Below are positions 1,918-54,019 of a stretch of 64,000 nt of DNA, one piece after another. The first letter of the stretch is position 1. The number at the start of each line of letters is the position of its first letter. The translations under genes and the position numbers were made by a program. Where the stretch lies: positions 8,868-72,867 of the forward strand of contig CABSCS010000008.1 in NCBI GenBank assembly GCA_902476355.1. Reading direction: 5' to 3'. Source of the stretch: an uncultured Eubacteriales bacterium (lineage in GTDB: Bacteria; Bacillota; Clostridia; Christensenellales; UBA1242). Under the pieces are notes generated by a model, which saw nothing but the letters and a program-made list of their open reading frames with translations, ran no database searches and was not told the DNA's origin.

Positions 1918-1993
1918 GGGTCATTAGCTCAGTTGGCAGAGCACCTGACTCTTAATCAGGGTGTCCGGGGTTCGAGCCCCCGATGACCCACCA
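1918..1993 (+). tRNA. tRNA-Lys (anticodon CTT), CCA encoded
   Basis: Hand-folded cloverleaf: acceptor GGGTCAT/ATGACCC, D stem GCTC/GAGC, anticodon stem CCTGA/TCAGG with loop CTCTTAA, T arm CGGGG-TTCGAGC-CCCCG, 3' ACCA. Confidence 0.95.
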
Positions 1994-2021
1994 AAAAGCA
2001 CCGATAATTCGGTGCTTTTTT
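1994..2021 (+). terminator. Rho-independent terminator after tRNA-Lys
   Basis: A-run, stem GCACCG / CGGTGC (1998-2015) with loop ATAATT, then T6. Confidence 0.8.
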
Positions 2022-2029
2022 CATGGTTA

Positions 2030-2155
2030 AACTTTGCTCGAACCCTGGGTTCGACTCCTGTCGGAGCCAGACCGCAATCAAAGATTGCTCCCGCTTTGTG
2101 CTAAAAACATGCCACAGGCATATTTTCTTAACGCAGTCGCCCCGAAGCCCCACCA
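2030..2155 (+). ncRNA. Unclassified tRNA-linked structured element, copy 1 (5' boundary uncertain)
   Basis: Aligns block-for-block with 39472-39596 (-). Hairpins CTCC-tgtc-GGAG, GCAATC-aaa-GATTGC and ATGCC-aca-GGCAT. Starts with GGGTTCGA. Ends with CCCCGAAGCCCCACCA, which matches the tRNA-Lys 3' end at 14/16 positions. Flanked by terminators. Confidence 0.5.
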
Positions 2156-2186
2156 AAAAAACAAACAAATTATTTGTTCTTTTTTA
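2156..2186 (+). terminator. A/T-rich hairpin plus T-run directly after the element's CCA
   Basis: AAAAAACAAACAAAT / ATTTGTTCTTTTTT imperfect inverted repeat followed by a T-run. Confidence 0.5.
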
Positions 2187-2271
2187 TCTTATCACTAATC
2201 ACTGCTGAAATTATAAACACTTTGAAATGCAAAATTTCAGTTAAAGCAAACTAAAAAAAACAAAGTATAAA

Positions 2272-2453: not shown

Positions 2454-3185
2454 ATGAAAACTGTAATTGTTACAGGTGCGTCACGCGGGATTGGCGCTTG
2501 CATTGCAAAAGAATTTGCAAAAAATGGATATAATGTTGTTTTAAACTATTTTAAAAGCGAGGAAAAGGCGAAAGAGGTTTCAAAAGATATTGAAAGTCTT
2601 GGTGCAAGAGTTTTGCTTTCAAAAGCAGATGTTTCAGACCCTGCGCAAGTTCAAGCAATGGTGGAAGAGGCGATAAAAGTTTTTGGAAATGTTGATGTTT
2701 TGGTAAACAATGCTGGAATTTCGATTTCTGGACTGCTTATAGACATGACAAATGAACAAATTCAAAATCTTGTTTCAACAAATCTTGTTTCTCAAATTGT
2801 TTGCGCAAGAGAGGTTGCAAAACATATGATTGGTCGTCAAAGCGGAAGAATTGTGAATGTTTCATCAATTTGGGGAGTTGTTGGCGGAAGCAACGAAACT
2901 GTTTACAGCGCAACAAAGGCGGGAATAATTGGCTTTACAAAGGCGCTTGCAAAAGAACTTGGACTTTCGAACATAACGGTGAATGCAGTTGCTCCTGGTG
3001 CAATTGAAACCGACATGATGAAATGCTATGACGCTGAAACAAAAAATCAAATTGCAGAAGAAACAACTCTTGGAAGAATTGGAAAACCCGAAGATATTGC
3101 AAAAGCTGTTTTATTTCTTGCAAGTGATGATGCGTCATATATAACCGGTCAAGTTTTGAGAGTTGATGGCGGTTGGAATATATAG
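2454..3185 (+). CDS. Short-chain dehydrogenase/reductase, FabG-like (3-oxoacyl-ACP reductase family)
   Basis: TGASRGIG cofactor motif, NNAG, catalytic S...YSATK. 243 aa, typical SDR length. Confidence 0.8.
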   Translation: MKTVIVTGASRGIGACIAKEFAKNGYNVVLNYFKSEEKAKEVSKDIESLGARVLLSKADVSDPAQVQAMVEEAIKVFGNVDVLVNNAGISISGLLIDMTNEQIQNLVSTNLVSQIVCAREVAKHMIGRQSGRIVNVSSIWGVVGGSNETVYSATKAGIIGFTKALAKELGLSNITVNAVAPGAIETDMMKCYDAETKNQIAEETTLGRIGKPEDIAKAVLFLASDDASYITGQVLRVDGGWNI

Positions 3186-5418: not shown

Positions 5419-6717
5419 TTAAAATTTGAAAATTGAAAGTAGGACGAGGCAAACAAAAAAGGAAAGAAATGCTTGAACAAATTTTGCAAAAATAAATTTT
5501 GAAACTTTAATGTTTGTTTTTGAAAGAAAAGATAAAGATTGAAAAATGATAGAAAATCCACCAAAAGAAATGAGTGAAGAAATCAACGAATATGAAAGAG
5601 AGCAGTGCACATTAGAGAGCATTTTTACACCTCTTGTCATTTCTATTATGCCAGACATAACACCGCTTGAAAGTGCCGTTTTTTCTGGATTTGAGCCAAA
5701 CAGTGGAGAAATGAGTTTTGCAAAAAAATGCAATATTTTGGTTTGGTTTAAAATGTCGATAAGAACAAAAAAGAAAGCAATATAAAAGCAAACAACAAGC
5801 AAACTTTGTGCAGTGTCAATTGCAGAAGAAGACATGATTTGCAAAAAGTTTTTCTTTGGGCTTTCATGTGTCACTTGTATTCCTGTGCGATGGTTTTGTT
5901 TGTCGTTGTCATCGTTTTGGTTGCTATTTGTTTTGCTTGTTTTTGTGCTTGCAAAGGCAAAGTTGTTTTTGCTTTGATTTAGTTGGTTGAAATTTGCAAT
6001 TTCGTTTTCGCTTGTTGTATTGTTATGAATAAAAGCACATTTGTTTGCGTGGAGGTTCTTGAACGAAGAGGTGGGCTGTACGGCTTTTTTGATTAAACTG
6101 TTAGAAGAGGTTTGCAGATTTGCTTGTTTTGTCAGTTTTTTATTCGTGTTTCTTTGTTTGATTTTTGCAAACAGATTTATAATTATTGCCGAAACAACCG
6201 CTGATATAACACTTGAAACATAAATGATAATTCCAAGTTTTGGGCTGTTGAGCATTCCAGTTCCAACACTTCCGATAATAAAAATAAGCCCAGATGTTGA
6301 AGAAAGAACTGCACACAGAAAACTATCTTTTTTGCTGATTTTTCCTTGCATAAACAGGTCTGCTGTAATTTTTGAACCGATTGGATATCCTGACACAAGA
6401 CTCATGAAAAAGGCATAAAAACAGTCTCCGCCAATGCCAAACAACTTTTGCATTGGCTTGTTGGCAATTTTAGAGAGTTTTTCAAAATTTAGGTTTGTGA
6501 TGATTTTGCAAAGAAACATGAAGGGTAATAGTCCTGGCAGAACCGAAACAAAGAAAAGTTTAATTCCGCTTGTTACGCTTTTTGCGTACAAAGCAGAGTT
6601 TGAAAGAATGCAAAACATGACCAGAAAAATTGCAATAATCCACACATTTTCTTGAAACCGTGCAAATGTGGCTTTTTTTATTTTACATTTTTCGCTGAAT
6701 ATTGTATTATAATGCAT
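5419..6717 (-). CDS. ylbJ: Nucleoside-recognition (Gate) domain membrane protein, YlbJ-like
   Basis: Polytopic membrane protein, convergent with rsmD as ylbJ is in Bacillus. Start moved to the ATG at 6717, because the longer ORF would overlap the divergent gene at 6767. Contains a ~105-aa N/Q/S/T/K-rich linker. Confidence 0.6.
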   Translation of the reverse strand: MHYNTIFSEKCKIKKATFARFQENVWIIAIFLVMFCILSNSALYAKSVTSGIKLFFVSVLPGLLPFMFLCKIITNLNFEKLSKIANKPMQKLFGIGGDCFYAFFMSLVSGYPIGSKITADLFMQGKISKKDSFLCAVLSSTSGLIFIIGSVGTGMLNSPKLGIIIYVSSVISAVVSAIIINLFAKIKQRNTNKKLTKQANLQTSSNSLIKKAVQPTSSFKNLHANKCAFIHNNTTSENEIANFNQLNQSKNNFAFASTKTSKTNSNQNDDNDKQNHRTGIQVTHESPKKNFLQIMSSSAIDTAQSLLVVCFYIAFFFVLIDILNQTKILHFFAKLISPLFGSNPEKTALSSGVMSGIIEMTRGVKMLSNVHCSLSYSLISSLISFGGFSIIFQSLSFLSKTNIKVSKFIFAKFVQAFLSFFVCLVLLSIFKF

Positions 6718-6766
6718 ATTAAATGTATATGCAAAGCATAGTCTTTTTTGACAAAGGAGAAAAAAT

Positions 6767-7594
6767 ATGAAAAAGCGTTTAACATGCATTGCAATGTCGC
6801 CAGAAAAATTGTTTTTGGTCAAGTTGATGCTTTCGTGTTTTTCACTTGCGGTTGCCATTACGCTATATTTGATTGGGCTTATTAATTTTGTTTGCCTTAT
6901 AATGGTTTTGGCGGGTGTTCTTTGGAACTTTTTTGCAAAGATAAATTCGTTTGTTGGGTTTGGTCTTTGCCTCGTGACGTGCTTTATTTGTGGGCTTGAA
7001 TGCATATCTATTGGGTTATATTCACATGCAATTTTATATTTGATTTTCTATATTGTGCTTGAACTTTTTGTTCTTGTTTTGAACCTTAAAGGAAACACTG
7101 TTTTTGTTAGATATAAAAATCTTTCACCAACCGATTCATATTATATTGTTTTGTCTATTTTGCTTTTTGCTGTTTGTGGATTTTCAATTTCACTTTGCCA
7201 AAACAACATGATTGTTCCAGCAATCGACGCAGTTTGCGCTAGTTTGCTTGCACTTTCAGCATATCTTCATTCAAGAAATTTCAGAGAATATTATGTAATC
7301 CGTCCAATTGCTCTTGTTTTGACAATTGCAATGTTTGCCTATATTGTTTCAATTGGAATGGCAAGCAGTGTCACAATCAGTTTGTTGCTTCTTTATGTGA
7401 TTTATTTTGTGCTTGACGCAGTTGAACACATTTTCTTGATTCAATCAAAATTCAAAGTTCGCCACAGTCTGAGAAATGTTTTTGCAGACGAAAGCACTGT
7501 AGATGAAGTTGAAATTGTCCCAGAAAAAACAGAAGAACAAACAAACGAACAAAAACCAAAGAAAAAGGGCAGAGGTAAAGATGTTCTTGCTTAA
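6767..7594 (+). CDS. Polytopic membrane protein, unknown function, charged C-terminal tail
   Basis: About 7 hydrophobic helices. RBS AGGAGA upstream. Tail is EEQTNEQKPKKKGRGKD. Confidence 0.5.
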   Translation: MKKRLTCIAMSPEKLFLVKLMLSCFSLAVAITLYLIGLINFVCLIMVLAGVLWNFFAKINSFVGFGLCLVTCFICGLECISIGLYSHAILYLIFYIVLELFVLVLNLKGNTVFVRYKNLSPTDSYYIVLSILLFAVCGFSISLCQNNMIVPAIDAVCASLLALSAYLHSRNFREYYVIRPIALVLTIAMFAYIVSIGMASSVTISLLLLYVIYFVLDAVEHIFLIQSKFKVRHSLRNVFADESTVDEVEIVPEKTEEQTNEQKPKKKGRGKDVLA

Positions 7595-7604
7595 AAAATA
7601 AAAA

Positions 7605-7633
7605 GGCACACAAAATTGTGTGTCTTTTCTTTT
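7605..7633 (+). terminator. Rho-independent terminator
   Basis: GGCACACA-aaat-TGTGTGTC followed by TTTTCTTTT. Confidence 0.7.
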
Positions 7634-7845
7634 GCCTAGGTTACTTGCGTGATGTTTTTTTTGAGTTGGTGCAGGCAAAGTGTGTTGTCCGCAGTCATAA
7701 AAATAAGTATTTTTGCGGGTATTGTAATGTGTTTGATTATCGCTTTTTGATTTTATACATTGAGATAACGCTATTATGAAAAAATGATGAGAAGTTTTTA
7801 ATCGTTTTATTTATTTTGTTATCTTGCATGATATGCAATCACTTT

Positions 7846-9072
7846 TTATCTGTTTTGAACAACAAAAATTGTTTTGTCGGTTGCTTGTTTGCGGTTGTTG
7901 CAGATGTTATATATGTTCGAACCTGCCTGGTTTTGCAAAACAAATGTTGCTTTTTCTTGTTCAAGTTTTTCAAGGTCTGAAAGACTTACAATAAGTTCGG
8001 CTTTAGAGGTTTTAATGAGTTCTGAAAGCCATTTTTTCTTTGAAGCGTTCACTGCAAGAACATTAATTGCATATGGCTTGAAAAGGGCTTTTGAAAAATC
8101 TTTTTTCACATTGAAGAGTGGAAGAAGTAAAAGTTTTGCAATTCTGCTTTTTCTGTAACACTTGCTGGAAAGAGCATTGCAAATTTGCCTTTGTGATGAA
8201 TAGAGATTCGAGTTGTTTTTCACGAGGTGGCTGAGGGCTGAGTTATAGTCAGCGAAAGTTTCAAGTTCTTTTGTTGAAAGGTCGCGAAGATGTTCAAGGA
8301 CAAGTGCGTCAAGTTTGATTTGGGCTTCGTTTGAAAATGTGCGATTTTTTAAACTTTCAAAAACATGAGATGGAACAAGGCGTTTTGTCTTTTTTGTTTT
8401 GCCAGAATAGGCAAGGCTTCTGATGAATGTTGCGTTCACGAGATATTTGGTTTTTCCAAAGATTCTTATGCGTTTTATTTTGTTTGTATTATATCCGCTG
8501 TCTTCACGGTTTATAAAAACTGGTTGGATGTTTAAATTGTGCTTATAGATTGCTGAAAGGTATTCGATTGCAAGAATATTATTTGGTTCGCTGAAAATTT
8601 CGTCAATTTCACTTTGCAAAGAAGGATAGGCTTGTTTATAGGTTTGAAGAAGAGCCATGCTGTAACTTTGACCCATTTTCATGAAAGAAACAATCATGTT
8701 TGAAATCTTTTTGTCTTCTTGGCATTTTAGTTTTGCGATTTTTATGAGGGAAGATGTTTCTTTCACTTTTACGCCAAATGCAAGAGAGTCTATTCCAAGG
8801 TCTGAGAGAATCTTTACTCCGCCAAGAGCAAAGAAAGGAGCAGATGAAAGTGTGAAACATTCAGGAAGTTCAAGAACAATGTCTGCGCCCGAAACAATTG
8901 CATGGCTGGCTCTTTCATATTTATCAAGAATTGCCATTTCTCCGCGCTGGGTGAAGTTTCCACTCATGATAACGGCAATGTTCGCGTTTGTTTGCTTTTT
9001 AACTTGTTTTAAAAAGTAGTCATGACCATTGGTCAGCGGGTTAAATTCGGCAATAATTCCACAAAGTTTCAT
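7846..9072 (-). CDS. tmcAL: tRNA(Met) cytidine acetate ligase (YlbM/UPF0348 nucleotidyltransferase family)
   Basis: N-terminus MKLCGIIAEFNPLTNGHDYF (HxGH-type nucleotidyltransferase motif). Start set at the ATG at 9072. Confidence 0.75.
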   Translation of the reverse strand: MKLCGIIAEFNPLTNGHDYFLKQVKKQTNANIAVIMSGNFTQRGEMAILDKYERASHAIVSGADIVLELPECFTLSSAPFFALGGVKILSDLGIDSLAFGVKVKETSSLIKIAKLKCQEDKKISNMIVSFMKMGQSYSMALLQTYKQAYPSLQSEIDEIFSEPNNILAIEYLSAIYKHNLNIQPVFINREDSGYNTNKIKRIRIFGKTKYLVNATFIRSLAYSGKTKKTKRLVPSHVFESLKNRTFSNEAQIKLDALVLEHLRDLSTKELETFADYNSALSHLVKNNSNLYSSQRQICNALSSKCYRKSRIAKLLLLPLFNVKKDFSKALFKPYAINVLAVNASKKKWLSELIKTSKAELIVSLSDLEKLEQEKATFVLQNQAGSNIYNICNNRKQATDKTIFVVQNR

Positions 9073-9170
9073 AAAAATCTCTCTCAAACATTTTATTTTT
9101 TTTGATATTTGTATTATAATAATTTTATTATAACTTATAAAAGTTGTTTTGGCAACGGGAGGATAGCATT

Positions 9171-10211
9171 TTGTTTGGCAAAAAACCAAAAGCAAACGAC
9201 ACTTTCAAGTATATAATAGAGAAAGCCTCTGGAACAGGAAAAACCATTGTTTTGCCAGAAGGCAATGATGATAGAGTGATTCAGGCAGCGGAAAGGGCTT
9301 CTTTGATGGGGCTTTGCAAAGTTGTTTTGATTGGAAACAAGATTTTGCTTAAAGATAAAATTTCTAAAAAGGCATTAAAGAACATTGAAATTATCGATGT
9401 TCAAAGTGAAACTCACCGCAGAGAGATGTATGCTCATTCGCTTTATGAACTTCGAAAAGAAAAGGGCATGACCGAAGAGCAGGCTCTTGAAACACTTAAA
9501 GATCCAATGTACTATGCAACAATGATGCTTCAAAGTGATGATGTTGATGGCGTTGTTGCTGGTGCGGTATACGCTTCGGCAGATGTAATGCGTCCTGCAT
9601 TTCAAATTATAAAAACAAGGTCGGGAATTTCAAAGGTTTCAAGTGCTTTCATCATGGAAATGCCACAAGGCTCTTCGCTTGGCGAAAACAACATGATGGT
9701 GTTTGCTGATTGTGCTGTTATTCCAGACCCAACTGACAAAGAACTTGCAGAAATTGCGGTTTTGTCTGCTCGTTTGGCAGATGATATTTGCTCAATGAAA
9801 CCAAAGGTTGCGCTTTTGTCTTTCACAACAAAAACCGACCCAGATGTTGCAAACGAAGACATTCAAAAGGTGAAAAGGGCATATAAACTTGCAAGAAGAA
9901 TGGATTCTTCAATTGTAATTGATGGCGAACTTCAAGCCGATGCAGCAATTGTTCCAGAAGTGTGCGACAAAAAATGCAAAGGCTCTTCACTTGGTGGAAA
10001 AGCAAATGTTTTGATTTTCCCAAACATTGATGCGGGCAACATTGCATATAAACTTGTTCAGCGTATTGCGGGTGTTCGTGCAGTTGGCCCAATTTTGCAG
10101 GGGCTTCGCAAACCAATAAACGACCTTTCAAGAGGTGCCAGTGCAGACGAAATTGTGCTTGCAATGGCAATTACTATTTTACAAACAAAAACAAGCATTA
10201 AAGGAGAATAA
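9171..10211 (+). CDS. pta: Phosphate acetyltransferase
   Basis: IVLPEGNDDRVIQAAE, VVAGAVYASADVMRPA, GPILQGLRKPINDLSRGA. TTG start 8 nt after the GGGAGG RBS is preferred over the upstream TTG at 9144. Confidence 0.85.
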   Translation: MFGKKPKANDTFKYIIEKASGTGKTIVLPEGNDDRVIQAAERASLMGLCKVVLIGNKILLKDKISKKALKNIEIIDVQSETHRREMYAHSLYELRKEKGMTEEQALETLKDPMYYATMMLQSDDVDGVVAGAVYASADVMRPAFQIIKTRSGISKVSSAFIMEMPQGSSLGENNMMVFADCAVIPDPTDKELAEIAVLSARLADDICSMKPKVALLSFTTKTDPDVANEDIQKVKRAYKLARRMDSSIVIDGELQADAAIVPEVCDKKCKGSSLGGKANVLIFPNIDAGNIAYKLVQRIAGVRAVGPILQGLRKPINDLSRGASADEIVLAMAITILQTKTSIKGE

Positions 10212-37947: not shown

Positions 37948-38050
37948 TGTTGCTTGATTTGTTTTTTAACTATCTACATTAAAAATGTTTTTTTATTTTG
38001 ATGCTTTATGATATAATATTTTTGATTTATGGCGAACAGGAGTGAGTGAC

Positions 38051-39268
38051 ATGTCTGATGAAAATCAAATTAAAGAACTTGAAAATTTTATGATGAATAT
38101 TGACGAACTTGACAAGTTGTCAAAATATCAAAACGAAGTGAACTTTTTTGAAATTACGGGAATGGTTTCAAAAGAGATAAAGCACAGCAACTTTTTGGCA
38201 TGGCTTTTCAATGTAAATGCAAACCACGGGATTGGTGATAAATTTATTCGCAAGTTTATGCAAAAAGTTATGAAAGAAAATCAAGGTTCAAAAGCGATAA
38301 ATTCGGATATTCTTCATTTGTCTCTGCTTGATTATGACACATTCATGATAAAAAGAGAGTGGAAAAATATTGATATTTTCATGGTTTCAGACGAGGAAAA
38401 ATATACAATTACAATTGAAAACAAAATCTATGCATCTGAAAGACAAAATCAAACACTTGATTATAGAAGTAAAGTTGAACCAATTTATAAAGGATACACA
38501 AACATTTATATTTTTTTAACCATTGATGGTTTGCAGGCGCAAGACAGCGAATATTGGTGCAATGCCAACTATTATATGGTTGTTGAGGCAATTGATGAGA
38601 TCTTGAAAGAAAATCCAAATCTTTCAGATGACGTGAAATTGCTTTTGAAAAATTATGTTTCAATGTTAAGGAGAGATATTATTATGGATAAAGATATTGA
38701 AAAAATTTGTAATGAAATTTATAAAAAATATAAGGTCGCGCTTGATTTGATTTATCAATATCGCCCAGACGAAGTTGCTTCTATTTCAGATTTTATTATG
38801 GATTTTCTTGAAAAGAATGCCGAAAAATATAATGTTATTTTTGACAGAGATAATTGCTCAAAAGCATATGTTCGTTTTACAACAAAATATATGAACAGTC
38901 TTGTTCCGAAAAACAATGATTTGAGTTATGGTTGGAAAAATGGCTGTGGATTTTTATATGAAATTGAAATTCTGGGCAATTATAAATCACAATGTCTTGC
39001 ATCCATTAGTGATGCATCAAACCCTGTTTGTGTTGAGATTTTTAAAATTGCTCAAAAGAACCATAAAAAGTTTAACATTTTGCATAAAAATAACGAAACT
39101 CCAAATCAGTGGGCAAGGGTATTTAGGTCAAATATAATTCTTGACAAAGAACAAATTCAAAACGGTTTGGAAGAGTGCGAAGATGTGCTTGTAAGGCACC
39201 TTGATAAACTTCTTTCAGAAGAAATCCCAGCATTTGAAAACTGTATTAAAGAAAATTTGTCAATTTAG
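38051..39268 (+). CDS. PD-(D/E)XK nuclease-superfamily protein (PDDEXK_4-like N-terminal domain plus uncharacterised C-terminal domain)
   Basis: FFEITGMVSKEIKHSNFLAWLFNVNANHGIGDKF, then NIDIFMVSD...ITIENKI (D...E-x-K). ATG at 38051, 9 nt after the AGGAG RBS. Confidence 0.6.
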   Translation: MSDENQIKELENFMMNIDELDKLSKYQNEVNFFEITGMVSKEIKHSNFLAWLFNVNANHGIGDKFIRKFMQKVMKENQGSKAINSDILHLSLLDYDTFMIKREWKNIDIFMVSDEEKYTITIENKIYASERQNQTLDYRSKVEPIYKGYTNIYIFLTIDGLQAQDSEYWCNANYYMVVEAIDEILKENPNLSDDVKLLLKNYVSMLRRDIIMDKDIEKICNEIYKKYKVALDLIYQYRPDEVASISDFIMDFLEKNAEKYNVIFDRDNCSKAYVRFTTKYMNSLVPKNNDLSYGWKNGCGFLYEIEILGNYKSQCLASISDASNPVCVEIFKIAQKNHKKFNILHKNNETPNQWARVFRSNIILDKEQIQNGLEECEDVLVRHLDKLLSEEIPAFENCIKENLSI

Positions 39269-39319: not shown

Positions 39320-39427
39320 GTTGTATTGTTTTTCTAAAACGTAATTGCTTATATTTGTACAGATAATATGATATTTTCATTAATCACTTTGCGTAAGCAA
39401 AATATCATTCCCAAAGGAATTATTTTT

Positions 39428-39461
39428 ATAAAATTAAAGAGAAGTCAAACGATTTCTCTTT
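39428..39461 (-). terminator. Hairpin plus short T-run after element copy 2
   Basis: On the minus strand: AAAGAGAA-atcgtttgac-TTCTCTTT followed by AATTTT. Confidence 0.45.
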
Positions 39462-39471
39462 TTATTTTACT

Positions 39472-39596
39472 TGGTGCGAGGAAAGGGGCGACGCGTTAAG
39501 AAAAGTGTTGATAACACTTTTTAGCCAAAGCCGGGGAGAACATGAAATGTTCGGTCTGGAACCGACAGGTTTTGAACCCAAAAGGGTGTAAAGTCA
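39472..39596 (-). ncRNA. Unclassified tRNA-linked structured element, copy 2 (5' boundary uncertain)
   Basis: Same block order as 2030-2155. Hairpins AACC-tgtc-GGTT, GAACAT-ttc-ATGTTC and AAAAGTGTT-atc-AACACTTTT. Starts with GGGTTCAA. The last 16 nt, CCCTTTCCTCGCACCA, are identical to the tRNA-Leu 3' end. Confidence 0.5.
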
Positions 39597-39614: not shown

Positions 39615-39644
39615 AAAAAAGAGAGGATTGTTCCTCTCTTTTTT
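39615..39644 (-). terminator. Rho-independent terminator after tRNA-Leu
   Basis: On the minus strand: A6-GAGAGGA-acaa-TCCTCTC-T6. Confidence 0.8.
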
Positions 39645-39651
39645 GTTGTAT

Positions 39652-39736
39652 TGGTGCGAGGAAAGGGACTTGAACCCTTACGACTCTCATCACTTGCCCC
39701 TTAAACAAGCGCGTCTGCCTATTCCGCCACCCTCGC
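39652..39736 (-). tRNA. tRNA-Leu, class II, anticodon reads AAG in the canonical 7-nt loop; CCA encoded
   Basis: GCGAGGGTGGCGGAATAGGCAGACGCG-CTTGT-TTAAGGG-GCAAG-T-GAT-GAGA-GTC-GT-AAGGG-TTCAAGT-CCCTT-TCCTCGC-ACCA. The D-arm is near-identical to E. coli tRNA-Leu. Confidence 0.9.
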
Positions 39737-52729: not shown

Positions 52730-52973
52730 TATAAAGACGATGACTATGTAAAGTAGTTTTCAATTTCCATGAAGAGAGTGTTGCTCGTGGCTGGAAGGCA
52801 ACATATGGTTCAGTTGAAAATGAATTTCGGCATATGAGTTGCTTGCAGGAAATGGCAAGTCGGTTGCCCCCGTGAAAGGCTGAAACGAGACACTTTTTGT
52901 GTGAAACAAGGTGGTACCACGCTTTCAACGCGTCCTTGGAGAGACAATCTCCATGGGCGCTTTTATTTTTTTT
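52730..52973 (+). promoter_or_regulatory. T-box leader (tRNA-Phe-responsive) controlling pheST
   Basis: Promoter TTGACT-16-TATAAT at 52694-52721. Stem I AGAGAG motif. UUC triplet at 52826-52828 on the 3' side of Stem I. T-box sequence AACAAGGTGGTACCACGC (52906-52923). Terminator GCGTCC...GGGCGC followed by a T-run. Confidence 0.8.
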
Positions 52974-52987
52974 AAAGGAGAAGAAAA

Positions 52988-54019
52988 ATGAAAGAGAAAA
53001 TCTTAAAACTTAAAGAAGAATTTGAAGAGTTCTGCAAAAATGTAAAATCGCTTGCCGATGTAGAATCTTTGCGTCTTGACTTTCTTGGAAAAAAAGGAAA
53101 AATCACAAATTTAATGGCTGATTTCCGTCTTGTTCCAAACGAACAAAAGAAAGAAATTGGAATGCTTATCAACAACCTTAAAACAAACGTTGAAGAAACT
53201 GCAAAAAATTTGAAAGAAAAGGTTGAGGCTCTTGCTCTTGAAGAAGAACTTAAAAATGACAAGAAAATTGACTATACTTTGCCAGTTGATTTGAAAACCG
53301 GAGCACTTTCACCAAGAACCATTCTTCAAAAACAAATCATTGACACTTTTGTTTCAATGGGCTTTATTGTTGAAGATGGAAATGAAATTGAAACCGAATA
53401 TAACAACTTTGACTCTGTAAATGTTCCTGCATCGCACCCAGCACGTGACATGCAAGACACTTTCTGGCTTGACAATGGCGAGGTTTTGAAAACTCAAACT
53501 TCTGCTGCACAAAACCGCATTTTGAGAACACATGGTCCAAAATGTCGTGTTATTTTTCCAGGAAGATGTTTCAGAAATGAAGCACTTGATGCAACCCATG
53601 AAAACACATTCTTCCAAGTTGAAGGCGTTGTTGTTGACGAAAACGTTTCTGTTGCAAACCTTATCTATTTCATGAAACAAATGCTTAAAGGCGTGTTCAA
53701 AAAAGATGTGAACGTTCGTCTTCGTCCTGGATTTTTCCCATTCACTGAACCAAGTTTCGAACTTGATGCAACATGCCCATTCTGTGGTGGAAAGGGTTGC
53801 AACTCTTGTTCAAAAACTGGCTGGCTTGAACTTTGCCCATGCGGTATGATTCATCCAAATGTTTTAAAAATGGCTGGAATTGACCCAGACAAATATAACG
53901 GCTTTGCGTTTGGTCTTGGCTTTGACCGCTTGGTTATGATTAGAACTGGTCTTGAAGATATCCGTTATCTTAACAGCGGAAATATTAAACTTTTAAGCCA
54001 ATATGGAACAAAGATATAG
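52988..54019 (+). CDS. pheS: Phenylalanine--tRNA ligase alpha subunit
   Basis: Class II motifs: FPGRCFRNEALDATH, GFAFGLGFDRL. Confidence 0.95.
   Translation: MKEKILKLKEEFEEFCKNVKSLADVESLRLDFLGKKGKITNLMADFRLVPNEQKKEIGMLINNLKTNVEETAKNLKEKVEALALEEELKNDKKIDYTLPVDLKTGALSPRTILQKQIIDTFVSMGFIVEDGNEIETEYNNFDSVNVPASHPARDMQDTFWLDNGEVLKTQTSAAQNRILRTHGPKCRVIFPGRCFRNEALDATHENTFFQVEGVVVDENVSVANLIYFMKQMLKGVFKKDVNVRLRPGFFPFTEPSFELDATCPFCGGKGCNSCSKTGWLELCPCGMIHPNVLKMAGIDPDKYNGFAFGLGFDRLVMIRTGLEDIRYLNSGNIKLLSQYGTKI

Follow-up and report, generated by a model that had tools for sequence, protein, structure and literature searches.

Gene-free units with a conserved pseudoknotted core adjoin tRNA genes in Christensenellales-like Clostridia and may be small tRNA-targeting integrative elements

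Immediately 3' of a tRNA-Lys gene, the stretch of clostridial DNA analysed here (64,000 nucleotides, hereafter the window) carries a short segment that ends like a tRNA, and we asked what kind of unit this is. A preliminary description, made from the letters alone, had proposed a ~125-nt structured element in two copies, at 2030-2155 and at 39472-39596 on the minus strand, and both were found at these positions. ARAGORN called tRNA-Lys(ctt) at 1918-1993 (+) and tRNA-Leu(aag) at 39652-39736 (-) in the window and no tmRNA, in agreement with the proposal that the element is not a tmRNA. The block CCTGTCGGNNCCAGACC has two exact occurrences in the window (chance expectation 0.06, with ≤3 mismatches allowed), and pairwise alignment of the two copies displayed all of the shared blocks and the hairpins H1, Ha and Hb that had been described. 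The tail of copy 1, CCCCGAAGCCCCACCA (2140-2155), matches CCCCGATGACCCACCA of tRNA-Lys at 14 of 16 positions, as previously counted, and the tail of copy 2, CCCTTTCCTCGCACCA (39487-39472), matches tRNA-Leu at 16 of 16. Both window tRNA genes are adjoined by one copy of an ~86-nt core that lies inside a duplicated tRNA piece. The idea of a conserved structured insert held, with a refinement of what is conserved: only the ~86-nt core (2055-2142 in copy 1) is conserved as a unit, and the tRNA-like flanks vary with the neighbouring tRNA.

The order observed within a unit is R (a tRNA 3' segment), x (a trailer, often with a terminator), L', a short spacer, L and the core. Copy 1 consists of the following parts.

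1918..1993, plus strand: intact tRNA-Lys(ctt), the target of copy 1, whose 3' part is R1 (ARAGORN; Rfam tRNA, 68.8 bits)
1994..2035, plus strand: trailer x1 with the tRNA terminator hairpin (GCACCGATAATTCGGTGC and a T-run), from the sequence; identical to the array-internal trailer in strain contig L041
2036..2045, plus strand: L', GCTCGAACCC, the exact reverse complement of tRNA-Lys positions 51-60 (GGGTTCGAGC), from inverted-match scans
2047..2054, plus strand: L, GGGTTCGA, which repeats the T-stem 5' strand and T-loop start in sense orientation
2055..2142, plus strand: conserved core of copy 1 (covariance-model match 92.3 bits, E = 4e-19; pair counts)
2055-2066, plus strand: core hairpin H1, CTCC-TGTC-GGAG
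2067-2071, plus strand: CCAGA, with TTTG(T)G at 2095-2100 as a possible partner
2074-2088, plus strand: core hairpin Ha
2093-2094 with 2139-2140, plus strand: core pseudoknot pairs G2093-C2140 and C2094-G2139
2103-2126, plus strand: core hairpin Hb, including its A-run/T-run extension
2127-2134, plus strand: invariant core block CTTAACGC
2135-2141, plus strand: core tail AGTCGCC
2140..2155, plus strand: R2, CCCCGAAGCCCCACCA, a copy of the tRNA-Lys 3' end (T-stem 3' strand, acceptor 3' strand, ACCA)
2160..2186, plus strand: second terminator-like hairpin (AACAAACAAATTATTTGTT and a T-run), from the sequence and strain comparison

L of copy 1 pairs with L' over the 1-nt spacer T2046, and L' also covers the two T-loop bases that are absent from the L/core junction. 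R2 shares an ambiguous CC(C) with the core tail, and its variant is that of the array-internal R of L041. The 3' half of the hairpin at 2160-2186 is continuous with flanking sequence whose conservation extends to strains that differ on the left side (L027). The parts of copy 2 lie on the opposite strand.

39652..39736, minus strand: intact tRNA-Leu(aag), the target of copy 2 (ARAGORN; Rfam tRNA, 45.3 bits)
39582..39595, minus strand: decayed L', GACTTTACACCCTT, where the tRNA would predict GACTTGAACCCTT
39572..39579, minus strand: L, GGGTTCAA, equal to the tRNA-Leu T-stem and T-loop start
39485..39571, minus strand: conserved core of copy 2 (covariance-model match 79.4 bits, E = 4e-16)
39472..39487, minus strand: R2, CCCTTTCCTCGCACCA, the tRNA-Leu 3' end (16/16)
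39436..39461, minus strand: terminator-like hairpin following R2

This last hairpin is akin to tRNA-Leu's own terminator at 39615-39644 but has diverged from it. The same type of deviation in L' was seen in a related species (L046), in which the orthologous core is identical to that of copy 2 at 81 of 85 positions; all four changes fall in Ha and include one compensatory pair. Elsewhere in this comparison identity was 67% in x/L' and 59% downstream; the core and R2 match the tRNA itself in between-species conservation whereas the flanks diverge.

The preliminary description had inferred selection on a fold from compensatory changes in H1, Ha and Hb. All three hairpins were observed to covary in the ~86-nt core, together with a long-range pseudoknot helix that it had not noticed. 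It had also drawn a stem CCAGACC/GG(c)TTTGG around Ha; the GG of this stem pairs instead with the 3' tail GCC, forming the pseudoknot, and what remains possible is pairing of CCAGA with TTTG(T)G. Across 44 distinct homologues the helices were paired at 93.9%, against 77.7% in shuffled alignments, and the covariation score was 0.379 against 0.102, with none of 500 shuffles scoring as high. The homologue set was seeded with fixed blocks, so the alignment is not independent of the pattern. The pseudoknot alignment pair 59-111 was GC in 29 sequences, CG in 10, UA in 3 and AU in 1, and the cores of L006 and L007 differ solely by one compensatory pair. Single-sequence folding compared with shuffles gave z = -3.8 for the sense RNA, -2.1 for the antisense RNA and -3.2 for DNA. 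Three core blocks are invariant and unpaired, namely the UGUC loop, CUCCC and CUUAACGC. One G.U (G.T) pair is conserved in the core and wobble pairs elsewhere show no strand bias, so that an assignment of the strand by wobble pairs hangs on that one pair. Judging from these comparisons, the core is under strong constraint as a single-stranded fold, and whether as RNA or as ssDNA is not settled; invariant unpaired bases combined with a pseudoknot are seen more typically in functional RNAs than in the ssDNA recombination sites known so far. With 44 distinct sequences and a covarying pseudoknot, the addition of a new structured-nucleic-acid family is well supported.

That no described RNA family has this layout, as had been stated, was borne out by the searches. 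When the whole window was searched with Rfam 15, only the two tRNAs and one T-box reached the gathering threshold, and permissive scans (E < 1-10) of eight units, both in the window and six at further loci, gave no match to the core. The Rfam models for hammerhead, HDV-like, twister, twister-sister, pistol and hatchet ribozymes did not match the units. Neither did the Rfam intron models, and an 86-nt core is far below group I or group II size. The unit also cannot be read as a tRNA or tmRNA, being without a 5' acceptor strand, a D arm and an anticodon arm by sequence, ARAGORN and the Rfam tRNA model.

The covariance model retrieved 47 copies (44 distinct) on ~40 contigs of Christensenellales-like Clostridia, and in most of them we observed the interrupted-T-loop layout first suggested for the window, with a break after about position 58 and a conserved insert. 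Neighbouring tRNAs represent 13 anticodons, covering Lys(ctt), Leu(aag, caa, cag, taa), Arg, Asn, Thr, Gly, Ile, Trp and Ser(tga, cga); this number is a lower bound, that is, at least 13 kinds of tRNA gene in related gut Clostridia. The tRNA-like ends are not specific to the family but were copied in each case from the adjacent tRNA. It had been asked whether every additional copy carries the 3' end of its own neighbour, and nearly every locus with an intact adjacent tRNA does (within 2 mismatches in 14; 13 anticodons). In each copy the core is preceded by the short sense piece L and followed by R, the 3' part of the tRNA, in many cases with a terminator, and the inverted L' lies upstream. L' is an inverted copy of the uninterrupted target, extending from the site by 8-12 nt on the left, where it takes in the 2-3 bases that the junction has lost, and by 0-12 nt on the right. 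It is specific for the resident tRNA far beyond the universal T-loop bases, and an inverted-match scan found no L' at unit-free tRNAs. Of 43 units, 22 can form a mismatch-free L'/L stem of ≥5 bp, most of them over a spacer of ≤4 nt, and in 17 L' is exactly complementary to the first ≥3 nt of R; other units pair with mismatches. The same L'-core-R layout was also found with other intervening sequences in place of the core.

Most copies have the core in the T-loop; it occupies the anticodon loop at L007, L008 and L035, the border of T-stem and acceptor at L004, L018, L021, L028 and L043, and the antisense strand at L010 and L023. The same core is found at four kinds of site across different tRNAs. 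Integrases that target tRNA genes use similar T-loop, anticodon-loop and border sub-locations. The sole constant feature of the target is nnn^CC, which overlaps the core 3' GCC. Direct repeats begin at C61 (nnn^CC) or at another fixed point and extend to CCA (14-19 nt) or through the terminator (up to 77-89 nt); in antisense copies they terminate at the tRNA 5' end and not at a terminator. An intact tRNA was retained in every locus that shows one, upstream of the unit in most loci, and on several contigs only a partial tRNA lies upstream. The interrupted tRNA copy lacked its 5' half in every examined locus. Across more than 40 loci, units have a uniform size of ~120 nt, to which R is added. 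Over 90% of the canonical copies point the same way as the tRNA, an orientation that could reflect dependence on read-through transcription, and canonical copies finish with a terminator. An inverted core subfamily has the opposite orientation relative to R (L023, L048).

We observed tandem arrays at L004, L021, L022, L041, L043 and L045, the right ends of arrays falling after R, within L' or in mid-core, and truncated or decayed copies at L019, L022, L029, L041 and L047. Turnover was observed at the orthologous locus tRNA-Leu(aag)-yfhO, where L046 carries the unit of window copy 2, L047 keeps only a decayed half core, and L048/L049 have two units of the diverged inverted core subfamily. Repeats in two places were recombinant. 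In the L043 array, x1 is unlike x2 and x3, which are equal to each other, in its 5' part, and x3 turns into flank after the T-run; in the window, R2 and x1 match the array-internal R and x of L041, and x2 runs into conserved flank. From the sequences alone, these patterns appear to carry the signature of Campbell-type insertion. Units also stand in tandem with island-like DNA (L008, L030/L033/L017, L041). At L008, a prophage-like island and a mini-unit share a single tRNA site, which fits the accretion picture described for CIMEs (PMC5704250). Three loci (L016, L030, L040) looked as if a core alone had inserted into a partial tRNA copy, and for this apparent nesting a deletion between the L repeats of adjacent units is a simpler account. 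Tandem-inversion duplication as the origin of L' suits the forward-inverted-forward layout but leaves the conserved cores unexplained. The preliminary description could not see the antisense target copy L', the repeats reaching the terminator, the other sites within tRNAs, the arrays or the decayed copies, and with these the unit changes from an RNA that has a tRNA-like tail to a candidate tRNA-targeting insertion element.

The explanation that we favour, at a probability of about one half, is that the units belong to a family of integrative elements, small, non-coding and non-autonomous, which reside at the tRNA genes of Christensenellales-like Clostridia, insert in Campbell fashion and have the core as functional module. 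We infer that a unit would arrive as a circle or concatemer and that its R-x would recombine with the resident tRNA gene at the gene's 3' end and trailer. Such an insertion would leave the tRNA intact and yield the direct repeat R1...R2, and repeated integration or unequal crossing-over would give rise to tandem arrays. The core and the helix of L' with L (and R) may present a mimic of the tRNA target to a trans-acting enzyme or to a processing step related to propagation; this role of the core is inferred, and so is what kind of enzyme is involved. The units qualify as tRNA-site integrative elements or CIMEs in so far as the direct repeats include the tRNA 3' end and the tRNA is left intact. 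Against mobility, no integrase, transposase, relaxase or reverse transcriptase adjoins any unit, and no circular form was seen. Since 14-19 nt of identity is little for recombination of the RecA type, the units may yet require a site-specific enzyme. Cores that are nearly the same occur at different tRNAs and sites, and re-targeting of this kind is not explained by a unit with fixed L', L and R; integration in Campbell fashion also gives no detailed account of the inverted subfamily (L023, L048) or of the other cores in the same layout.

Searches for a partner or a carrier were negative. Pfam analysis of 30 window ORFs and 20 locus ORFs yielded no integrase, transposase, relaxase or reverse transcriptase; these ORFs are housekeeping or scattered phage-like genes, and the window region is housekeeping. 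No integrase was found within ~8 kb of any unit, and an all-against-all comparison of ORFs around ~45 loci revealed no recurrent partner protein. The unit was not found by blastn in 50,697 phage records or 72,556 plasmids, no contig matched it in a pattern scan of IMG/VR, and in these three collections no larger element carrying the core was found. A promoter scan predicted none for the unit, which is preceded by a terminator. No guide that covaries with the target was found inside the core, and literature searches returned no specific described equivalent of the element.

Several known systems share features with the unit. Like tRNA-site integrative elements and CIMEs, it lies on the 3' side of the tRNA gene, has direct repeats of the tRNA 3' end and leaves the tRNA intact. 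It also shares their anticodon-loop, T-loop and 3'-end sub-locations and their tandem arrays with other elements (for the concept, PMC5704250). Unlike them, it measures ~120 nt plus the repeat, is free of genes, carries an inverted copy of the target (L') and has a conserved, covarying, pseudoknotted core abutting the repeat; moreover, one core serves many tRNAs and sites, which is not compatible with the specificity of a single integrase. The attP(+) hairpin of CTX phage, used by XerCD, and integron attC sites offer another likeness, in that the duplex of L', L and the start of R could mimic a target, structure is better conserved than sequence in the stems, and arrays occur. Those sites are simple imperfect hairpins without pseudoknots. 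The unit differs from them in having an 86-nt structured insert in one arm, a crossover that is seemingly not fixed and no dependence on Xer or IntI shown. With the bridge (seek) RNAs of IS110/IS1111 it shares a small structured non-coding module that matches the target on both strands, and orphan modules without a recombinase gene are known there, such as ssr9 of ISPpu9, which spreads in trans (PMC12288879). In contrast, the unit has no nearby DEDD recombinase and no evident pair of target and donor loops, it targets tRNA genes and not REP or attC sites, and IS110 insertion does not produce long direct target repeats. An IS110 bridge or seek RNA was rejected on the lack of a recurrent protein gene nearby and of target-covarying sequence in the core. 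Miniature derivatives of IS200/IS605 (PATEs) and the omega-RNA of TnpB are likewise ~100-nt, hairpin-rich, strand-specific, non-autonomous modules whose 3' end abuts ~16 nt of flank-derived sequence, but the unit lacks a constant 4-5-nt left target motif and a nearby tnpA or tnpB, and it keeps the target intact. Insertion of IS200/IS605 type was rejected for want of a constant motif in the left flank; an omega-RNA-like scaffold with a 3' guide was rejected since the inverted subfamily argues against such a reading and no tnpB or iscB lies nearby. A DDE-type MITE is excluded by the absence of terminal inverted repeats and by repeats of 14 to ~90 nt without a fixed duplication, the only inverted repeat of the unit being L' with L and the start of R, i.e. 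target sequence. Bacterial group I introns and mobile archaeal tRNA introns also insert in tRNA loops, and the antisense segment spans both "exons" over the junction as do internal guides or the EBS-IBS and delta pairings of group II introns; here, however, the core is too small, the tRNA copy has no 5' half and the insert does not contain the antisense segment. Small self-cleaving ribozymes (HDV-like, hammerhead, twister, hatchet; retrozymes) resemble the unit in size, pseudoknot, proximity to tRNA and tandem repeats. In addition to the missing Rfam matches, the helix order is not that of the HDV double pseudoknot, on which an HDV-like fold was rejected, and catalysis by the unit is only hypothetical.

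Two further readings give the core an active part. The units may be genes for a functional small RNA or ribozyme tied to the cognate tRNA and transcribed by read-through from its strong promoter, the copies being paralogous genes and not products of transposition; the core would be catalytic or bind a protein, and L' and R would provide tRNA-specific pairing and a tRNA-like 3' end for processing, decoy or regulation. The pseudoknot, the invariant unpaired blocks and the conserved G.U pair support this, as do the tRNA-like conservation of core and R2 between diverged flanks, the co-orientation of more than 90% of canonical copies with the tRNA and their final terminator, and the lack of mobility genes nearby. 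We nevertheless hold it to be unlikely, if a serious contender, on account of the terminator upstream and the lack of a predicted promoter, the common arrays, half copies and decayed copies, the loss or replacement of the unit at the orthologous locus in close relatives, the antisense copies and the oppositely oriented subfamily, wobble pairs that show no strand bias outside one pair, and the absence of a match to any known ribozyme or RNA family. Somewhat less probable to us is insertion guided by nucleic acid, in which L' (antisense) and L and R (sense) act as programmable guides or splints on the core as scaffold, and a recombinase, HUH nuclease or reverse transcriptase encoded in trans inserts the unit at nnn^CC of the sequence matched by L', comparable to IS110 bridge or seek RNAs, the DNA guides of IS200/IS605 and the EBS-IBS pairing of group II introns. 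It would account for an L' that spans the uninterrupted target and is specific to the resident tRNA, for nnn^CC as the only constant target feature, overlapping the core 3' GCC, and for one core at four kinds of site in different tRNAs, and mobilisation of orphan bridge-RNA-like genes in trans has precedent (PMC12288879). However, L' is often imperfect, and in window copy 2 and L046 it is decayed despite an intact core; the repeats of L043 and the window fit recombination within R-x and not a fixed cut at nnn^CC; the core contains no guide that changes along with the target, all copies are without a candidate enzyme gene nearby, and there is no clear way to rewrite three matching segments together. 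More speculative still, the core could represent a catalytic or scaffold nucleic acid of a new class that, via the target-complementary splint L', directs its own insertion at nnn^CC of targets that can be exchanged at will, as a natural module free of protein genes, programmable and specialised for tRNA genes, or alternatively a new small ribozyme cutting or joining at the core/tRNA junction; we consider this doubtful.

The remaining readings see the units as by-products or as copies of RNA. They could be inert scars, CIME-like attL-attR remnants of larger islands or prophages integrating at tRNAs, with the core an inactive attP arm or part of an int leader or terminator. Both the sub-locations and the direct repetition of tRNA 3' ends are as expected for tRNA-site integration, the units stand in tandem with island-like DNA at the loci given above, and CIMEs and their tandem accretion are an established concept (PMC5704250). 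We find this improbable, as no full-size island with a core beside an integrase was found, the phage, plasmid and IMG/VR collections gave no match, and the unit size is uniform over more than 40 loci; a dead duplex attP arm would not be expected to be selected for a single-strand fold, as the compensatory changes and the covarying pseudoknot show the core to be. Very improbable, in our judgement, is a retroelement-like RNA inserting by target-primed reverse transcription, with R as a target-site duplication of variable length and the array ends as truncations. The range of repeat lengths (14 to ~90 nt), the variable right ends of arrays, the CC microhomology at the core/R junction and the frequent ending of sense-copy repeats near the terminator T-run would suit it. 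But the window R2/x2 is unlike R1/x1 and the repeats of L043 are recombinant, that is, not a duplication of resident sequence, no reverse transcriptase lies nearby, L' matches the resident tRNA and not a donor site, and antisense-copy repeats end at the tRNA 5' end and not at the terminator. Classical target-site duplication or target-primed reverse transcription was rejected on the recombinant or donor-type repeats in L043 and the window.

If integration in Campbell fashion is the correct reading, common gut Clostridia carry, at the sampled loci, a tiny element without genes beside many of their tRNA genes, which keeps the tRNA intact by means of its own copy of the tRNA end and depends on an uncatalogued 86-nt fold. 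Since no integrative element this small turned up in the literature searches, it may be among the smallest. How one conserved module comes to be accompanied by three matching target-derived segments at many tRNAs is a puzzle, and its solution could reveal a guide-based or structure-based mechanism of recombination. For annotation, the units create pseudo-tRNA 3' ends and repeats, which can break assemblies and mislead island-finding tools.

ARAGORN predicted two tRNA genes in the window, tRNA-Lys(ctt) and tRNA-Leu(aag), and no tmRNA anywhere in it; the smpB-ssrA pair is likewise absent from the window. The segment of interest lies downstream of the terminator of both tRNAs, and only ~86 nt of it, the core, is conserved:

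1918-1993, + strand: tRNA-Lys(ctt)
2055-2142, + strand: core of copy 1
39485-39571, - strand: core of copy 2
39652-39736, - strand: tRNA-Leu(aag)

The block CCTGTCGGNNCCAGACC occurs exactly twice in the 64 kb, with a chance expectation of 0.06 when three mismatches are allowed. Pairwise alignment recovered the conserved blocks and hairpins of the preliminary description, and the tRNA-like tail of copy 1 matches the 3' end of tRNA-Lys at 14 of 16 positions, as claimed there; the tail of copy 2 is identical to tRNA-Leu at 16 of 16. The observation is confirmed and its interpretation holds. The surroundings are a housekeeping region (pta-ackA, plsX, rnc, ftsY, ffh, trmD, rnhB, polA, ctsR), in which an ORF with an RNB domain (RNase R/II-like; 31-1788, +) stops just 5' of tRNA-Lys. 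Convergent on copy 2 is a 408-aa PD-(D/E)XK nuclease-family ORF (PDDEXK_4; 38042-39268, +), which was not found beside other copies and is replaced by a different gene in related species (L046-L048; L numbers denote homologous loci or contigs from related Clostridia, metagenomes or strains).

Rfam 15 at the gathering threshold reported nothing in the window beyond the two tRNAs and a T-box leader that has no bearing on the element (52731-52940, +, 100.7 bits, upstream of an ORF at 52988-54019). Permissive scans of both window units and six further loci gave no match over the element, in keeping with the earlier impression that it belongs to no catalogued RNA family. A gapped pattern retrieved 25 loci from GTDB species representatives, all of them Clostridia metagenome-assembled genomes (labelled Christensenellaceae, Christensenella, Catabacter, Candidatus Onthoplasma, Eubacteriales or Clostridia bacterium), and a slightly looser one retrieved 18 metagenome contigs. 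The looser pattern found nothing in IMG/VR, and blastn against 50,697 phage and 72,556 plasmid records gave no match. A covariance model of the core built on 26 sequences detected 47 copies (44 distinct) at E <= 1e-10 and, with weaker scores, further copies that are diverged or truncated. Near the units there is no recurrent protein family.

That the fold is under selection had been proposed from two copies, and covariation across the 44 distinct sequences supports all three hairpins. The proposed structure is 93.9% paired compared with 77.7% in shuffles, and its covariation score is 0.379 compared with 0.102, a value reached by 0 of 500 shuffles; slid controls collapse. The outer two pairs of H1 (NNCC-TGTC-GGNN) covary (CG/GC/AU/UG and UA/AU/CG), Ha is a supported helix, and Hb, extended by A-run/T-run pairing, includes A-U to C-G changes. 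A long-range helix pairs the GGC just before TTTGG with the GCC of the 3' tail (pair 59-111: GC 29, CG 10, UA 3, AU 1), so that the core forms a pseudoknot. Pairing of CCAGA with TTTGG fits the data but shows no sequence variation; this helix contains a conserved G.T. Since the remaining wobble pairs show no strand bias (8 GT/TG vs 12 AC/CA) and single-sequence folding gave z values of -3.8 for sense RNA, -2.1 for antisense RNA and -3.2 for DNA, the strand and molecule that fold are not settled.

In core orientation, the layout consists of an intact tRNA (A-L-R1), a trailer x with or as the terminator, an inverted target copy L', a spacer of 1-5 nt, a short sense tRNA piece L, the core and a tRNA 3' part R2. 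L comprises 6-9 nt identical to the tRNA immediately left of the insertion point, mostly GGTTCG(A), the T-loop positions up to 57/58. R2 begins at C61 and copies the tRNA to CCA (14-19 nt), and in many loci continues across the terminator, reaching as much as 77-89 nt. L' corresponds, in reverse complement, to the uninterrupted tRNA on both sides of the insertion point, containing 2-3 loop bases absent at the L/core junction plus up to 12 nt of R; no such inverted copy was found at tRNAs without a unit. Most copies have the arrangement first described, a tRNA 3' portion whose T-loop is interrupted by an insert. The core can also lie in the anticodon loop (L007, L008, L035), at the T-stem/acceptor border of tRNA-Leu (L004, L018, L021, L028, L043) or on the antisense strand of tRNA-Lys(ttt) (L010, L023). 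The adjacent tRNAs represent 13 anticodons. Of the target, only nnn^CC is constant, and it overlaps the 3' GCC of the core. The tRNA-like ends are those of the neighbouring tRNA and not of the family.

Between copy 2 and its counterpart in a related species (L046), the tRNA is identical at 85/85 positions, R2 at 16/16 and the core at 81/85, with all four changes in Ha and one compensatory pair among them, whereas identity falls to 67% in x plus L' and to 59% in the downstream flank. L' is imperfect in a similar way in both species, so it is passed on together with the unit, under weaker constraint than the core. Cores that are nearly identical are found at different tRNAs and different sites: a single compensatory pair in H1 is all that separates the core of L006 (Lys, T-loop) from that of L007 (Leu, anticodon loop), and those of L035 and L043 are close to both. 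Units must therefore change targets within short times, with L', L and R changing together. Such re-targeting could not be derived from staggered cuts, target-primed reverse transcription, a CTX-like ssDNA hairpin, HUH strand transfer or tandem-inversion duplication.

Evidence on how a unit inserts comes first from L043, an array of two units. Here x1, the trailer that follows the genuine tRNA, departs from x2 = x3 at four positions of its 5' part and agrees with them in its 3' part, and x3 changes to flank sequence past the T-run. Judged from sequence alone, a Campbell-type crossover leaves such a pattern when an incoming unit [R-x-L'-L-core] recombines with the resident locus inside a homologous R-x segment. 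In window copy 1, R2, with its acceptor strand AAGCCCC, equals the R found inside the array of L041, a strain of the same species; x1 likewise equals the internal x of that array, and x2 continues into a flank conserved in another strain (L027). As in L043, one copy is recombinant and the other donor-type. The repeat would then end on the right, at variable points, where donor/recipient homology stops. Where the repeat extends into L' (L019, L025, L046 and the tRNA-Gly unit of L021), the locus would already have contained remnants. In apparently nested cases a long sense tRNA piece is fused to the core (L016, L017/L030/L033, L038, L040); we infer that deletion between L repeats of adjacent units or att fragments can produce them. 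At L008 (1668-5282), prophage-like genes (Lin1244_N, DUF4417) extend up to a tRNA-Leu(taa) fragment beginning in the anticodon loop, followed by a canonical mini-unit with its core at the same anticodon-loop position. One attachment region thus seems to serve both the large island and the mini-unit, and by analogy this would be tandem accretion at a single tRNA site, as described for CIMEs, integrase-less derivatives of tRNA-site integrative elements (PMC5704250). Had resident sequence been truly duplicated, whether by a staggered transposase cut or by target-primed reverse transcription, the repeat patterns of L043 and the window would not be expected.

The best-supported reading, with a probability that we put at about one in two, is a non-autonomous integrative mini-element. 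It would bring along a tRNA 3' segment, through which it recombines into place next to the cognate tRNA, together with a constrained, pseudoknotted module of 86 nt. In kind it comes closest to tRNA-site integrative elements and CIMEs, but is set apart by its size, its multi-tRNA range, the inverted copy of the target and a structured core lying at the junction. A tRNA-linked functional RNA or ribozyme we regard as unlikely. Nucleic-acid-guided insertion, to which the re-targeting might point and for which no recurrent neighbouring protein speaks, is decidedly unlikely, and that a new guide- or ribozyme-based mechanism is hidden in the element is doubtful at best. Inert island scars are improbable beside so constrained a core. 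A retroelement could leave flanking repeats, of a kind not matching those seen, and is hardly credible.

The core is not alone in its architecture. Other, apparently unrelated inserts (~65-170 nt) occupy the layout tRNA - terminator - L' - insert - tRNA 3' part, so the architecture is not specific to this core, and a diverged subfamily, common only in the CTAAAAAC-hairpin-TTTTCTTAACG half (Hb/CTTAACG half; 21-29 bits), is inverted within the tRNA-centred layout, with tandem pairs after tRNA-Leu(tag) and tRNA-Leu(aag):

L010 524-660: other insert, tRNA-Gly(tcc)
L021 1696-1845: other insert, tRNA-Gly(gcc), repeat ~92 nt, L' included
L018/L028: other insert, between tRNA-Leu(caa) and the canonical unit
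L035: other insert, downstream of the unit
L023 3742-3813 and 3910-3998, + strand: diverged subfamily
L048 2000-2073, + strand: diverged subfamily

Together these suggest that the architecture may reflect a general process at the tRNA genes of these genomes, of which this core may be the most widespread passenger or the agent. Just downstream of some units are repeated short hairpins with TGAAAT/TGATAT spacers (window 39378-39440, -; L037 1480-1549, -; L028, L029, L045). They are similar to the Gut-1 motif of Rfam, with 21.8 bits for the window and 41.8 bits for L037 against a gathering score of 50; how they relate to the element is not known.

Units form tandem arrays (L004, L021, L022, L041, L043, L045) that end variably after R, inside L' or mid-core, and decayed or truncated copies occur (L019, L029, L041, L047). 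At the orthologous tRNA-Leu(aag)-yfhO locus, the state of the unit differs across four related species: L046 (YfhO 83% identical) has a copy 2-type unit and one further copy, L047 (75%) only a decayed half core 290 nt away, and L048/L049 (74%) two units of the diverged subfamily in opposite orientation. Strains of the window's species also differ around copy 1. L026 (1-500) and L027 (1-375) encode an SDR protein identical to that at window 2454-3185 and have different DNA on the left: L026 diverges up to the 5' end of tRNA-Lys, which starts GGATCAT and not GGGTCAT, and L027 has no tRNA and no unit, another gene being joined inside the terminator at ~window 2170. Assembly error is possible at both junctions, as both contigs have low coverage. 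L041 has an array and, directly after R2, a 4.3-kb insertion (5518-9808, compared with window 2155-2197) with two ORFs, one of 139 aa for a membrane protein and one of 942 aa that is GDSL-lipase-like; it also contains an extra, truncated core fused to a partial tRNA-Lys starting in the anticodon loop. A 1.3-kb segment recurs in L038, permuted around a core-containing tRNA fragment.
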